A stretch of DNA of 43,689 nt from a virus (lineage: Duplodnaviria; Heunggongvirae; Uroviricota; Caudoviricetes): the IMG/VR virus record IMGVR_UViG_3300045988_038444, positions 1 to 43,689 of that record; one strand, 5' to 3'. Position 1 is the stretch's first letter; every line of letters starts with the position of its first letter. A program made the translations under genes and the position numbers. Below, piece after piece: positions 16,146 through 43,689 of this stretch. The notes below the pieces were generated by a model, which was given only the letters and a program-made list of their open reading frames with translations, had not been told where the DNA came from and searched no databases.

Positions 16146-16187
16146 TTTAAAATAATTCTTGACGGATTACACAATGATGTGTAACCT
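16146..16187 (+). promoter_or_regulatory. conserved sigma70 promoter cassette P1
   Basis: TTTAAAATAATTC + TTGACG (16159-16164), 17 nt, TAACCT (16182-16187). Confidence 0.7.
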
Positions 16188-26978: not shown

Positions 26979-27385
26979 GGGGATTGTCCTCGTATTGTTT
27001 CAACATGACTAAATTCTAACATTTCGGATGAATAATTGCACTGGTGATACACGCTGTTTACAACGTTACCGAATATCTCAGAAAGATTCTTGATCGGTTC
27101 AACAGCAGTCGTTACTGGTTCAACAGCAGTCGTTACTGGTTCAACAGTAGTCGTTACCGGTTCAACAGTAGTCGTTACCGGTTCAACAGCAGTCGTTACT
27201 GGTTCAACAGCGTCCAGATGTTCAGCGACAACCTGGAAAAACACTGTGTTAGTTTCACGGTCAATAATAACCACTGTGCTGGAACTATCTTCAACAATGC
27301 TGAATGAGTAGTCGTAACGATCACCGTGAATTTTACGGGCGCGACGAATGAATTCGTCTGTAGCAACTCTGATGTTCGGATCCAT
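26975..27385 (-). CDS. repeat-containing protein with a degenerate endonuclease-type N-terminal module
   Basis: The start is taken at MDPNIRV (RBS AAGAAGGG). ATDEFIRRARKIHGDRYDYSFSIVED parallels EEFITRAREVHGHKYDYSLVEY of 16399-17310, but the Cys/His ligands are lost. This is followed by (VEPVTTA/T)x5. Confidence 0.5.
   Translation of the reverse strand: MDPNIRVATDEFIRRARKIHGDRYDYSFSIVEDSSSTVVIIDRETNTVFFQVVAEHLDAVEPVTTAVEPVTTTVEPVTTTVEPVTTAVEPVTTAVEPIKNLSEIFGNVVNSVYHQCNYSSEMLEFSHVETIRGQSP
27096..27213. repeat. 21-bp tandem repeat, about 5.6 copies
   Basis: ggttcaacagcagtcgttact-type units start at 27096, 27117, 27138, 27159 and 27180, with a partial unit at 27201. In frame on the minus strand. 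Confidence 0.95.
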
Positions 27386-27530
27386 ACATTCAACCCTTCT
27401 TGTTCTCTTAACCACAGGGTAGTTGTGTCGGTGTAATCCGTCAAGAATTATTTTGCGTATAGATTCATGGGAAGTATGCGACCCCCTATACCTTTTAAAC
27501 CTCTCCTACTTGCAGCAACTTTTACTACTT

Positions 27531-27637
27531 ATACTACTCTTCTATTTATCTATGTTTATTATGTTTTCTATAAAAAGATAACAAAAAGAATAAGATAGAG
27601 AGGGGTTGGTTAAAAAGTAAACATGACGAAATATATG
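27531..27637. repeat. dispersed ~105-bp AT-rich repeat, copy 1 (partner at 42606-42713)
   Basis: ...ctatgtttattatgttttctataaaaagataacaaaaagaataagatagagaggggttggttaaaaagtaaacatgacgaaatatatg aligns with copy 2 in direct orientation with few mismatches. Confidence 0.8.
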
Positions 27638-27652
27638 AATCTATGATCTACT

Positions 27653-27669
27653 AATACACGTTCTGTATT
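27653..27669. promoter_or_regulatory. palindromic operator-like site 1 (AATACA-CGTTC-TGTATT)
   Basis: Perfect 6-bp arms with a 5-bp spacer. Confidence 0.5.
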
Positions 27670-27715
27670 AGCCGCAACTCAAAATCATGAAACCTATGTA
27701 GAACTATGTGCAGTT

Positions 27716-27732
27716 AGTACACGTTCTGTATT
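27716..27732. promoter_or_regulatory. palindromic operator-like site 2 (AGTACA-CGTTC-TGTATT)
   Basis: Lies 63 bp from site 1 and ends 22 bp upstream of the -35 of P3. Confidence 0.5.
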
Positions 27733-27741
27733 AACTGCATC

Positions 27742-27783
27742 TTTAAAATAATTCTTGACGGATTACACCGACGCAACTATCTT
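27742..27783 (+). promoter_or_regulatory. conserved sigma70 promoter cassette P3
   Basis: TTTAAAATAATTC + TTGACG (27755-27760), 17 nt, TATCTT (27778-27783). Confidence 0.7.
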
Positions 27784-38094: not shown

Positions 38095-38122
38095 AGTTTA
38101 CCACGGGTGATTGGTGGTGACA
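38095..38122 (-). promoter_or_regulatory. candidate minus-strand promoter for terL (TGTCAC, 16 nt, TAAACT)
   Basis: Same geometry and the same CCCGTGGTAAACT core as the region upstream of the tape measure gene. Back-to-back with P7. Confidence 0.35.
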
Positions 38123-41346: not shown

Positions 41347-41378
41347 TTCTTGACGGGTTGCACAAGGAAGTGTAATAT
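41337..41378 (+). promoter_or_regulatory. conserved sigma70 promoter cassette P9
   Basis: TTTAAAATAATTC + TTGACG (41350-41355), 17 nt, TAATAT (41373-41378). Confidence 0.7.
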
Positions 41379-41412
41379 TACCTCATTGAAACGAATTATG
41401 AGGAACCGGAAA

Positions 41413-41604
41413 ATGTTATTTACAAAAGAATGGTATGAAATCATGGAGTCTTTCGAAAAGAATTGCAAAGGGCGTTTTCGTTTTGACCGTGAAGAAAAAG
41501 AAATGTGGAAAATTGGTGCGTACTATCAGCAAGGAGAATGTAACGAGTGGTTCAAAATGTTTCTTGCTGGTTATATGGCTGGTCGTGCTACTTATCTCAA
41601 CTAA
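41413..41604 (+). CDS. hypothetical protein (63 aa)
   Basis: ATG 41413 follows GAGGAA. The track start at 41350 is the -35 hexamer. Confidence 0.5.
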   Translation: MLFTKEWYEIMESFEKNCKGRFRFDREEKEMWKIGAYYQQGECNEWFKMFLAGYMAGRATYLN

Positions 41605-41614
41605 TGCGTAAAAC

Positions 41615-41634
41615 GCCCCGTAAGGGGCTTTCTT
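41615..41634 (+). terminator. intrinsic terminator ending the plus-strand island
   Basis: GCCCC-GTAA-GGGGC followed by TTTCTT. Confidence 0.65.
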
Positions 41635-41697
41635 ATATCACCCTGTACCCTTGCACCACCCATCAACAGATCGTCGAAACGCAAACGGTTTCCGGCG

Positions 41698-42333
41698 TTA
41701 TTTAAGCGCTTTCTGATACAGTTGCGCGATGTCGTCAATAGTTGCACCTTCAGGAACACTCTGAACCACGTTTCCAACCACACCAGACAATTCCACACGG
41801 TCGATACTGTTCCCGGTGATCTTATCCAGTTGTTCAGACGCTTTTGCACGAGTTTTCGGGTCGAACAGTTCACGTGTCACCAGAATGTATCCACCCAGCA
41901 TGTAACGTTTGTAGCAAACTACGTACTGTTGTAGATGGCTGGGGATATCGTCGGTACTGTTCACCCACAGGTGTTTCGCTTCCGTGTCGTCTTCACCAGG
42001 AACGATGACACGCTGACAATACGGTTCCAGTAATTCTTCAGCCGTGCTTGCCGCTCGTTTCCACCACTCGACACGACTCGTTAACGATTCCCCTACAGAC
42101 TCAAGCGCATGACTTCCCATCGCGTCCAGATAGTTCAACACCTTCGTATTCGACAGGAGGCGATGTGCGGTCGTTGCAGCCGCTGCATCAGACGTGTGAC
42201 CCGGATAAGCCTCTAAAACACATCGCGTATTGCTGAAGCCGTTATTGACACGATCTAACCACAGGTTGGCGAACTTGAGCTGTTCCGGCGACAACTCCAG
42301 AGCAGCCCTTTTAGCCCGGTCTGAAATTTTCAT
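41698..42333 (-). CDS. terS: terminase small subunit
   Basis: The start is taken at MKISDRAKRA (GGGAGA, 7 nt, ATG 42333). LSPEQLKFANLWL...CVLEAYPGHTSDAAAATTAHRLLSNTKVLNYL matches the Terminase_2-type N-terminal DNA-binding region. Confidence 0.75.
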   Translation of the reverse strand: MKISDRAKRAALELSPEQLKFANLWLDRVNNGFSNTRCVLEAYPGHTSDAAAATTAHRLLSNTKVLNYLDAMGSHALESVGESLTSRVEWWKRAASTAEELLEPYCQRVIVPGEDDTEAKHLWVNSTDDIPSHLQQYVVCYKRYMLGGYILVTRELFDPKTRAKASEQLDKITGNSIDRVELSGVVGNVVQSVPEGATIDDIAQLYQKALK

Positions 42334-42605
42334 AAATTTGTCTCCCATAAATTTTAAATTAGTTTCCCACAGATACCCACGGGTTGTCCACACGCCCTGT
42401 TTTACAGCTAATACAATGTTAATATTAAGTTTACAGTTAGTGCACAATATGCATTAATTTTCGACTATATACATAAATACGTAGCCCATAATCACAATGA
42501 TTTCAAAGACTTGCATAAAAACATAGATTACAATAGGTATCTCCCAGACTTTTATTTTAGCTCTATTTACAGCTAATACACTATATGCACTATCTCTATC
42601 TTTCT

Positions 42606-42713
42606 ATACTACTTCTTCTTTATATCTATGTTTTCTATGTTATCTATAAAAAGATAATAAAAAGAATAAGATAGAGAAGGGTCGGTTAAAAAATAAACAT
42701 GACGAAATCTATG
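42606..42713. repeat. dispersed ~105-bp AT-rich repeat, copy 2 (partner at 27531-27637)
   Basis: Direct-orientation copy with few mismatches. Contains a degenerate version of the promoter cassette (TTAAAAAATAAACATGACGAAAT). Confidence 0.8.
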
Positions 42714-42729
42714 TTAAGTATAACTTTAA

Positions 42730-42913
42730 TGCACAACATGCACTATATAATTCACAACGTGCATTAGCTGTGCCAACATAGATACACAACGTGCACTAAC
42801 AGTTAATACACAACGTGCATCTTGCACTAACTGCTAAAGCACAACATGCACTAAGTGTAAATACACTAACATATAAAGCACGTCTTGCACTAGCTGCTAA
42901 TGCACGTTATGAT
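42730..42913. promoter_or_regulatory. iteron/operator array (at least 6 sites, core CACAAYRTGCA / TGCACGTYNTG)
   Basis: Sites at 42730-42742, 42751-42763, 42783-42795, 42807-42819 and 42838-42850, plus inverted-orientation variants at 42877-42889 and 42901-42913. A further site lies at 42441-42453. Confidence 0.5.
42885..42913 (+). promoter_or_regulatory. candidate sigma70 promoter for the gene at 42945 (TTGCAC, 17 nt, TATGAT), overlapped by iteron-like sites
   Basis: TTGCAC 42885-42890 and TATGAT 42908-42913. Lies about 30 nt upstream of the RBS AAGAAGGG. Confidence 0.45.
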
Positions 42914-42944
42914 TTATCCGTGGTCAAACAAGAAGGGTATGATA

Positions 42945-43689
42945 ATGAAAAAGAACCTTTTAGACGAATTAATAGATTTAAAAGGCGGGGTACAAAACGC
43001 TGTTGAATACCTTAATCGTCGAGGTGTTAAGGTGACTGTTGGTCGTTACAACCAATGGTTAAGCGGTAGGTTTCATCCTAAATATGAAACGATCAGTATT
43101 ATTCTTGAAGAGATTACTGACTTCACACTGTCACCCTTGCCAGTACAACATTCTGACGAAAACATTGTTCTTAAACACACAATACCGGTTACCGAACTGC
43201 GTCAGAAATTACCACACAGACGTTTTGCTAATAACTACTGGCAACGTGTCAGATACGTTGATTCACAGATCCTGGAAGCTGTTCACGGTCACGACGTGTG
43301 GACACGGTTTGAGGCGATGTGTGGTAATTTTGAATGTGCAAGATATGTGCTACGCAGAAATTTAAACGAACACACAATTACTGACAGTTGGATTCAAAAT
43401 GGTTTGCGCCGGGGATGGATCCCGGAATGTGTAAACGTAATGGTCGATTTGCTTGAAAAATACGAAGGCACCGGGACACCGTTTAACGTAATGGTTTGTG
43501 AACCACCTGTATCACGAGTGGAACCACCTGTATCACGAGTGGAAGCACCTGTATCACGAGTGGAACCACCTGTATCACGAGTGGAAGCACCTGTAGCACG
43601 AGTTGAAGCACCTGTAGCACGATTTGAACCGCCTGTAGTCGATGTCAGCGATTTGAAGGAGAAAATCAGACTGTATGCGTTATCACACA
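42945..43689 (+). CDS. N-terminal part of an HTH-containing, repeat-bearing protein; runs off the window end
   Basis: RBS AAGAAGGG, 7 nt, then ATG 42945. The frame is open to base 43689. The N-terminus ...GGVQNAVEYLNRRGVKVTVGRYNQWLSGRF is Cro/YdaS-like HTH. It ends in the (E-P/A-P-V-S/A-R-V)x7 repeats. There is no stop in the window, so it is absent from the track. Confidence 0.6.
   Translation, partial: MKKNLLDELIDLKGGVQNAVEYLNRRGVKVTVGRYNQWLSGRFHPKYETISIILEEITDFTLSPLPVQHSDENIVLKHTIPVTELRQKLPHRRFANNYWQRVRYVDSQILEAVHGHDVWTRFEAMCGNFECARYVLRRNLNEHTITDSWIQNGLRRGWIPECVNVMVDLLEKYEGTGTPFNVMVCEPPVSRVEPPVSRVEAPVSRVEPPVSRVEAPVARVEAPVARFEPPVVDVSDLKEKIRLYALSH
43500..43646. repeat. 21-bp tandem repeat, about 7 copies
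   Basis: gaaccacctgtatcacgagtg-type units start at 43500, 43521, 43542, 43563, 43584, 43605 and 43626. The distal units are progressively diverged. Confidence 0.95.

Follow-up and report, generated by a model that had tools for sequence, protein, structure and literature searches.

A dyad-site array and its paired double-HTH protein in 9NA-like phages: a candidate organiser of replication origins

The 43.7-kb window analysed here (positions 1 to 43,689 of IMG/VR virus record IMGVR_UViG_3300045988_038444) is, by comparison with its relatives, a piece of a Sashavirus/Nonanavirus (9NA-like) virulent siphophage. Near its right end, the small terminase gene terS and a gene beginning at 42945 diverge from a 611-bp intergenic region (42334-42944; region A) that is crowded with copies of a 19-bp pseudo-palindromic site. 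Comparison across lineages makes it well supported that these form the cognate site cluster of the protein encoded directly downstream (the 42945 protein), whose predicted architecture includes two helix-turn-helix (HTH) domains, a variable first one (HTH1) that is paired with the sites and a conserved second one (HTH2). The reading we favour, with a probability of roughly 0.4, is that site cluster and protein constitute a self-regulated replication-origin organiser. The window contains no lysogeny module, and 9NA-type phages are virulent (PMC4153490); replication and gene regulation in 9NA/Sasha-like phages are essentially unstudied (PMC4153490, PMC11990801).

Dyad sites and their pairing with the 42945 protein

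A sequence-only reading of region A had described at least five direct copies of an 11-nt core, CACAAYRTGCA, each followed by a tail, YTARCWG, as well as two inverted variants over a promoter and one further site upstream of terS. All eight sites on its list were found where it placed them. The core has six exact matches in the window, all within 42443-42850; with up to one mismatch there are 16, against 5.6 expected, a count reached in none of 100 shuffles. Motif extraction recovered every copy on both strands at a fixed offset, so the unit is a 19-bp pseudo-palindrome, TAAWRCA-N5-TGCAYTA, and this 7-N5-7 arrangement takes the place of the direct core. With up to two mismatches it gives 23 strand-hits in the window against 2.9 expected (again 0 of 100 shuffles), corresponding to nine intergenic sites (S1 to S9; Table 1), two sites at 27652 and 27715 (B1 and B2), and three isolated single-strand matches at chance level. 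The nine intergenic dyads span 42438-42916. Seven of them form the array itself, with irregular centre-to-centre spacings of 21, 32, 24, 31, 39, and 24 bp, and the last two overlap the putative, weak promoter of the 42945 gene, which is of sigma-70-like type. Positions 1-4 and 6-8 of the half-site, with their mirrors 13-16 and 18-19, carry much information, and half-site positions 5 and 17 and most of the spacer carry less.

The tail did not survive as a regular feature: it is exact at two of the five sites (42751 and 42783), has one mismatch at 42838, and is absent at 42730 and 42807. Its YTA belongs to the right half-site and the rest to a recurring tail-to-tail spacer (RCWGY); in three runs, half-sites succeed one another every 12 bp, in alternating orientation. 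Of the two variants called inverted, the one at 42877 (S8) is in place, but the label is optional, as it has no mismatches to the dyad and its spacer alone differs. The one at 42901 (S9) is also present, as the weakest of the set; its right half is TGATTTA, and its left half is not kept in close relatives, where TGCAC becomes CGCGC or CACGA. The site at 42441 in the terS upstream region is S1. Overlooked earlier were a good site (S2), a degenerate one (S0, whose version in relatives, ending in AGTATTA, has two mismatches), and an extra half-site following S6. Site number and position are conserved in nine close relatives, with variation mainly in the spacers and S9; S8 is nearly invariant among them, with one variable spacer position (G/A at 42882).

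The lineages compared have a common layout (terS, a few sites, an AT-rich block, the array, and the gene) and lineage-specific site sequences. Four types were distinguished: a W-type HTH1 with nine TAAWRCA-N5-TGCAYTA sites (the window and Escherichia phage KarinMuster_Bas82, hereafter KarinMuster); a Bx-type with TAATMCT-N5-AGKATTA sites (BDX09P1); an N-type with seven to eight TAACA-N5-TGTTA sites (9NA and the related sequences L017 and L019); and a K-type with four to five GTTTCAsCTTACCAG sites (Klebsiella phages KP13-27 and BU9). HTH1 identity between types is 28-42%. When the four patterns were cross-scanned on nine region A sequences, the result was almost perfectly block-diagonal, with off-diagonal counts near zero and a shuffle expectation of less than 0.15 per cell. 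SP069 has two HTH1-bearing open reading frames (ORFs) and both corresponding site types. In all four types, a GTTACAG-like flank adjoins many half-sites at a fixed distance.

Phage BDX09P1 offers a natural exchange. Up to ~42712 it matches the window at about 91% identity, and there the array and the first ~65 codons of the gene have been replaced together; beyond these codons its protein is again nearly identical to the window's. In addition, about 130 bp to the left of the array, roughly ten clustered substitutions have converted its S2 to a Bx-type site (TTACACT-ACTCT-AGTATTA) between near-identical flanks. This cassette swap and site conversion, together with the covariation among lineages, make the pairing of HTH1 with the sites nearly certain. 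Site type follows HTH1 type in every lineage examined, in agreement with the earlier assignment of the sites to the downstream gene's product. The same reading had made conservation of the sites in relatives a requirement; their sequence is not conserved across lineages, but is replaced by a different cognate set, which in a comparison of this kind is stronger evidence for function than plain conservation.

The repeats might nevertheless be non-functional, the products of recent local duplication in an AT-rich spacer, with no binding role. Adjacent copies do share spacers and flanks (CAACR, RCWGY), as they would after tandem duplication, but independent lineages keep the layout with different site sequences, and the swap of the array along with HTH1, the conversion of S2, and the constancy of site number and position in the nine relatives make this explanation very hard to credit.

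TerS is excluded as the reader of the variable sites, since its variants do not covary with the array. Its identity is 85-90% across all lineages, and the variants are distributed as a mosaic independent of array type: KP13-27 and BU9 have the same array and different TerS, and 9NA and KP13-27 the same TerS and different arrays. The two variants concern the TerS N-terminus (codons 14-56, ~42166-42294, minus strand), which reads either SPEQLK...TSDAAAATT or TTDQLR...KDLNAAQVT; they may mark pac specificity.

Some relatives have insertions between the array and the main gene. In SP062 and SP069 (281-490 in the SP069 sequence, L008), the extra ORF is a free-standing 9NA-type HTH1, with N-type and K-type sites upstream of it; in L019 (2238-2504), it is an unrelated one of 88 amino acids.

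The 42945 protein itself, whose gene is preceded by a Shine-Dalgarno sequence (GAAGGG, 42932-42937), is composed of HTH1, HTH2, a linker of Pro-rich heptad repeats, and a short, conserved helical tail at the C-terminus (...NPHCDVDNMPDDVVLMMYKDMMGQ). The full-length structure model is poor overall, with a predicted local distance difference test (pLDDT) score of 61.7, but its first 60 residues form a confident four-helix domain. Foldseek matches of this domain are weak and consistent (the N-terminal domains of DdrO and of the TP901-1 CI protein, and Aca7), and its sequence matches are also weak (Pfam HTH_3, E ~0.1; a poly-XRE repeat protein, E 5e-5); together they favour the Cro/YdaS-like N-terminal HTH proposed earlier, as a domain of the XRE/Cro type. 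HTH2 is conserved, with two copies in the Klebsiella phages. The two-HTH architecture is proposed because both domains fold as XRE-type HTHs; sequence similarity between them (24 aligned columns, hhalign probability 10%) is not relied on. The copy number of the EPPVSRV linker repeat is different in every relative, and the repeat is disordered in the structure model. A match of the N-type HTH1 to Pfam DNA_Packaging_2 was dismissed (17 residues, E 0.016-0.056).

The protein corresponds to PHROG 25538, whose function is not annotated; it has no Pfam family, and a PDB sequence search with it gave no match. Ten relatives were found among 5.8 billion clustered proteins, and 12 in an exhaustive search of 1.84 billion representative proteins; the strong full-length matches are all from 9NA-type phages or their metagenomic kin. 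By these searches it is an orphan family restricted to 9NA-type phages. Two distant metagenomic members (P0012 and P0013) keep HTH1 and HTH2, but their C-terminal tail differs (...DITPEQVEEYYTRL...) while carrying a similar acidic Px(E/D)(Q/D)V motif. A third, from a JGI metagenome (P0001), is a 316-residue chimera, its HTH protein joined at about residue 7 to an antisense ORF of the terS leader; either the entire intergenic region has been deleted or the sequence is misassembled.

Promoter overlap, the AT-rich block and a second locus

The putative promoter of the 42945 gene, TTGCAC-17-TATGAT, had been described as good, which overstates its quality: it agrees with the consensus at 8 of 12 positions, falls below the promoter scan's threshold and so is not listed by it, and has TATGCT as its -10 in three of the nine close relatives. 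The overlap of the last two sites with it is as described, to judge by sequence, with S8 over the -35 and S9 over the spacer and -10. Promoter-like sites, read by eye, are present at the equivalent place in all lineages. In BDX09P1 it is TTGCAT-16-TAAAAT, abutted by a cognate site; in the Klebsiella phages it is TTGACC-17-TAAAGT, with an inverted site between promoter and start codon, over the ribosome-binding site (RBS); and in 9NA an extended -10 (TGTTATACT) is covered by one site, with the last site over the RBS. This recurrence of site-promoter overlap across lineages with different site sequences supports negative autoregulation of the 42945 gene through its promoter-proximal sites.

Between S2 and S3 lies an AT-rich block of about 120 bp, including roughly three tandem 9-mers at 42623-42647 detected by Tandem Repeats Finder (TRF). 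The complete KarinMuster genome has its lowest-GC 500 bp at the counterpart of this block. Most of the block (42605-42713) has a second copy about 15 kb away, at 27530-27637 (89.9% identity over 109 bp), between the head operon and an early gene cluster; this copy, with its two sites B1 and B2, is referred to here as region B. The first site follows the conserved block end by 18-19 nt in region A, in region B, and in BDX09P1. In the complete KarinMuster genome, the site pattern clusters at these two loci only, and the block occurs in two copies only. The region B block is also present in 9NA, Sergei, BDX09P1, and KP13-27, and sites of cognate type accompany it in several of these: two N-type sites in 9NA, two K-type sites in KP13-27, and W-compatible sites in the window and KarinMuster.

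Region B is bracketed by an inverted repeat of an early-promoter consensus, with both copies facing outward. This consensus, TTTAAAATAATTCTTGACGGATTACAC (25-27 nt, an UP-like A/T tract plus a -35), has nine plus-strand copies in the window, before small-gene clusters, at 16151, 18097, 27747, 31348, 32490, 34713, 38132, 39494, and 41342; the inverted copy, at the left edge of region B, is at 27438-27452 on the minus strand. A different box, ACCCGTGGKTA, is found in the leaders of terS (42374-42384) and terL (38098-38108), both on the minus strand, and a related one upstream of the head operon (~27402-27416, minus strand) and, in 9NA and Sergei, within region B. Such boxes may be part of late promoters or leaders. 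No convincing sigma-70 promoter for terS was found by scan or by eye.

Several other explanations of the AT-rich block were considered. It was rejected as a general late promoter, as it has two copies per genome, whereas the leader box of terL and other late units comes without it. A resemblance to the T4-like TATAAATA is not conserved. Structured DNA or RNA is not indicated by its hairpin z-scores (-2.3 in region A and -0.6 in region B), and Rfam has no match in the window.

These features could also be those of a purely transcriptional switch. The double-HTH protein would then be a repressor or activator of its own promoter, of the divergent terS (late) unit, and of the region B head operon or early promoter, and the AT-rich block would act as an UP-like element or a bendable spacer. 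Phage repressors, Aca proteins, and C-proteins typically have HTH domains of the XRE/Cro type; dyad-symmetric 19-mer operators do overlap the putative promoter here; N-type phages have a site 11 nt from the terS start, over its RBS; and regions A and B are both just upstream of minus-strand late genes with a common leader box. One argument against such a switch is the number of sites, nine to eleven over 500 bp, which far exceeds the needs of autoregulation. Another is their placement: apart from S8 and S9, the other seven plus two overlap no recognisable promoter, and there are no cognate sites at the nine early promoters, at the terL or other late-leader boxes, or elsewhere, which would leave a pure transcription factor with hardly any regulon beyond its own gene. 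In region B, the site centres lie at about -68 and -131 relative to the early promoter, at a distance that varies by at least 6 bp between lineages, which is poorly suited to occlusion or activation. The terS RBS has no site near it in W-type phages, and no sigma-70 terS promoter was found under the sites. A purely transcriptional role is considered less likely than an origin.

Candidate functions of the assembly

As an origin organiser, the assembly would work as follows. We infer that the 42945 protein binds each 19-bp dyad as a dimer through the variable HTH1 and, with less confidence, that the conserved HTH2 reads the conserved outer GTTACAG-like flank. Occupation of S8 and S9 would shut off the 42945 promoter. 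The AT-rich block is flanked by S2 on one side and S3-S7 on the other, and protein on these sites might build a nucleoprotein complex that destabilises it; the flexibly tethered C-terminal helix would then recruit the phage helicase, primase, or polymerase. Region B, with its block and two sites, would be a miniature copy of the same unit.

An origin is favoured on several counts: a conserved AT-rich element is flanked, at a fixed distance, by dyad sites; the distance from site to promoter in region B varies; the nine early promoters and the late-leader boxes are free of cognate sites; and a DNA-binding head followed by a flexible tether and a conserved terminal helix resembles origin-binding recruiters. 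Lambda O and SPP1 G38P, for example, have a DNA-binding head, a linker, and a partner-recruiting C-terminus.

There are several arguments against an origin. The 42945 protein has no sequence or fold similarity to known initiators, by Pfam, PDB, and Foldseek-type comparison, and in phages with a T7-like replisome, replication can begin with no dedicated initiator. The usual origin markers are of no help: no DnaA boxes, IHF sites, or GATC clusters are conserved (TTGTCCACA at 42384, seen in this check, is not kept in 9NA or L017), and GC skew was not used as a marker, since its extremes are at regions A and B but follow gene orientation and are uninformative. The sequence of the AT-rich block is 78-96% conserved, more than a mere unwinding element needs, which suggests a conserved reader other than those recognised. 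The putative promoter of the 42945 gene is weak by consensus. Finally, some natural mosaics have mismatched sites. Sergei, Sasha, and Solent combine a W-type protein with K-like region B sites (~620-715 in the Sergei sequence, L023), and BDX09P1 combines a Bx-type protein with W-like ones (L022, ~452-535); S1 of BDX09P1 also stays W-type. These sites would be either dispensable or read differently, and the region B mismatches imply that at least part of the system is dispensable. A second paralogue that might read them was not found, there being one homologue per genome except in SP062 and SP069.

Comparison with known systems yields partial parallels. Lambda ori likewise has several 19-bp dyad sites, bound by dimers, beside an AT-rich stretch (binding in the present case is a prediction), and the N-terminal DNA-binding domain of lambda O covaries with its sites, the remainder being conserved, with a linker leading to a partner-recruiting C-terminus. 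However, lambda ori lies inside the O gene, whereas the sites described here are upstream of the gene and over its promoter; the 42945 protein has no relation to Phage_rep_O in sequence or fold, there are two loci per genome, and its replication role is a prediction. SPP1 is likewise a virulent siphophage with its own replisome genes, and its G38P protein acts at two separated units of initiator boxes plus an AT-rich region, oriL and oriR. The SPP1 boxes are direct repeats, though, with oriL within gene 38; no homology was detected; and region B of the present phages has only two sites, mismatched to the protein in some natural mosaics.

The sequence-only reading had proposed an autoregulated initiator or repressor with its iterons. 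Cognate sites and promoter overlap are indeed features of iteron plasmids (P1 RepA with incC and incA, F RepE, pSC101, R6K, and RK2), in which the Rep promoter lies inside its own site array, an AT-rich element adjoins, and a second site cluster is found elsewhere on the replicon. Plasmid iterons, however, lack dyad symmetry: they are about 19-22 bp long, repeat in direct orientation and regular phase, and bind winged-helix monomers. The sites here are dyads with irregular 21-39 bp spacing, paired with an XRE-type protein and without conserved DnaA boxes, and are therefore not standard iterons; nor is the 42945 protein a member of the Rep_3/RepA winged-helix family, having no Pfam family, no PDB match, and two domains of XRE type.

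The XRE autorepressors (Cro/CI, Aca, and C-proteins) share with it the predicted fold of both domains, 14-19 bp dyad operators over their own promoter (a putative one for the 42945 gene), and the exchange of operator and HTH as a specificity cassette between related phages. They differ in having two to six operators, at promoters, where the present phages have nine plus two sites, mostly away from promoters and flanking an AT-rich block. The 42945 protein also adds a second HTH, a repeat linker, and a tail, in a virulent phage with no lysogeny module. For the binding mode alone, the POU-type arrangement of two helical DNA-binding domains on a flexible tether is a useful analogy; no homology is claimed.

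A more elaborate version of the origin hypothesis can be put forward tentatively, and is somewhat more doubtful than its simpler form. Here the 42945 proteins would be a new, lineage-restricted family of phage origin-binding initiators with two tethered XRE-type HTHs, a swappable specificity domain and a conserved flank reader. They would serve a two-origin system, with a large autoregulated oriA by terS and a small oriB at the head operon, whose cassettes are exchanged between co-infecting virulent phages much as the immunity regions of temperate phages are.

The position of the array beside terS raises a further possibility, that the array, the AT-rich block, or both are part of a pac region, with the 42945 protein helping terminase to choose or cut its start site. 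Cleavage at the 9NA pac site is reportedly spread over ~170 bp, according to the abstract of Zeng and coworkers, and this possibility hinges mainly on where the 9NA pac cleavage zone lies; no pac coordinates were found in the literature searched other than Zeng et al. 2019. In its favour, 9NA does package from a pac site (PMC4153490). The gene and terS always form a divergent pair, a two-gene island isolated between convergent operons, the conserved AT-rich block could pair with the conserved TerS, and several submitters open their genome records inside the terS-42945 intergenic region. These record starts follow the 9NA convention, however, and are not measured termini; TerS does not covary with the sites; and the second copy of the unit ~15 kb away would mean a second pac site. 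Nor is a separate HTH specificity protein known to us from any pac phage, which counts against such a role. Overall, a packaging accessory seems improbable.

Marginally less probable still is some other form of DNA organisation, such as a centromere-like or handcuffing element with a ParB-like protein, or a decoy or insulator, with regions A and B paired by the protein. The same unit is present at two loci per genome, relatives have a ParB-like gene a few genes away, and the conserved flank GTTTCA(C/G) has what we take to be a resemblance to a parS half-site. Nothing links ParB to the sites, though, and no need for partition is known in a virulent phage; the region B mismatches in natural mosaics argue against obligatory pairing of A and B.

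Whether as an origin organiser, as we prefer, or in another capacity, the array and its cognate autoregulated HTH protein make up a familiar design, with no conceptual surprise. What is new is the orphan double-HTH protein at its core and its setting in an unstudied phage group. PHROG 25538, so far without a Pfam family, gains a concrete predicted DNA target; four natural specificity classes are defined, including one cassette swap and one compensatory site conversion; and two candidate origin or control regions are pinpointed. Among the 9NA/Sasha-like phages are some of E. coli, Salmonella, and Klebsiella that are under consideration for biocontrol and therapy, and a defined protein-site module would be useful for engineering them.

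Coordinates and neighbouring features

Table 1. Features of regions A and B and of the flanking genes, in window coordinates. Positions in the last column are those of the earlier sequence-only reading.
Feature	Position	Strand	Sequence, basis and remarks	Earlier position
Region B, left arm of bracketing inverted repeat	27431..27454	-	outward-facing early-promoter consensus copy; repeat comparison	
Region B, second AT-block copy	27530..27637		identity to 42605-42713	
B1	27652..27670		TAATACA-CGTTC-TGTATTA; 1 mismatch; 14 nt after block as aligned	
B2	27715..27733		TAGTACA-CGTTC-TGTATTA; 1-2 mismatches	
Region B, right arm	27742..27768	+	outward-facing early promoter TTTAAAATAATTCTTGACGGATTACAC; one of nine plus-strand copies in window	
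terS, small terminase	41698..42333	-	211 amino acids; PHROG 51 match, E 8e-11; points away from array	
Conserved box in terS leader	42360..42395	-	contains ACCCGTGGGTA (42374-42384); kept in window, 9NA, L017, Klebsiella phages	
S0	42409..42427		TAATACA-ATGTT-AATATTA; degenerate dyad read from sequence; 3 mismatches to consensus	
S1	42438..42456		TAGTGCA-CAATA-TGCATTA; 0-1 mismatch	42441
S2	42574..42592		TAATACA-CTATA-TGCACTA; 0 mismatches; abuts left edge of AT-rich block	
AT-rich block	42593..42713		most AT-rich 100-bp windows of whole window; left half pyrimidine-rich, right half purine-rich	
S3	42727..42745		TAATGCA-CAACA-TGCACTA; dyad scan	42730
S4	42748..42766		TAATTCA-CAACG-TGCATTA; dyad scan	42751
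S5	42780..42798		AGATACA-CAACG-TGCACTA; dyad scan	42783
S6	42804..42822		TAATACA-CAACG-TGCATCT; dyad scan; then half-site TGCACTA, 42823-42829	42807
S7	42835..42853		TAAAGCA-CAACA-TGCACTA; dyad scan	42838
S8	42874..42892		TAAAGCA-CGTCT-TGCACTA; 0 mismatches; right half over -35 hexamer	42877
Putative promoter of 42945 gene	42885..42913	+	TTGCAC (42885-42890), 17 nt, TATGAT (42908-42913); read from sequence	
S9	42898..42916		TAATGCA-CGTTA-TGATTTA; weak dyad, 2 mismatches; over spacer and -10	42901
HTH1, variable N-terminal XRE-type domain	42945..43124	+	residues 1-60; pLDDT 78-92; weak XRE matches	
HTH2, conserved middle domain	43257..43469	+	residues ~105-175; XRE/Cro-like fold; fold comparison	
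EPPVSRV linker	43500..43637	+	21-bp in-frame tandem repeat, 6.6 copies; TRF; gene runs past window end	

The right end of the window (41600-43689) is 96.7% identical to KarinMuster and 93-96% identical to Sasha, Sergei, Solent, and others; the window is in the reverse complement orientation of the KarinMuster record. Genes along it are in the order of a gp2.5-like single-stranded DNA-binding protein (SSB) C-terminus, DNA polymerase, lysis, tail, head, portal, terL, terS, and the 42945 gene, which is truncated by the window end 23 codons short of its stop. A circular junction at this end was ruled out, as the window starts in a different gene, that of the gp2.5-like SSB with its PVAAPTPAAA repeat. 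The terS start is identical to that of 9NA gp1.

Between the converging ends of terS and an ORF at 41350-41604 is a GC-rich hairpin, GCCCCGTAAGGGGC (41615-41628), with flanking A and T runs. It is likely a bidirectional terminator, which would leave terS as a single-gene unit. In-frame tandem repeats are found in three genes of the window: besides that at 43500-43637, there is a 30-bp repeat at 1-105, encoding the PVAAPTPAAA units of the SSB tail, and a 21-bp repeat at 27096-27211, in the ORF to the left of region B.

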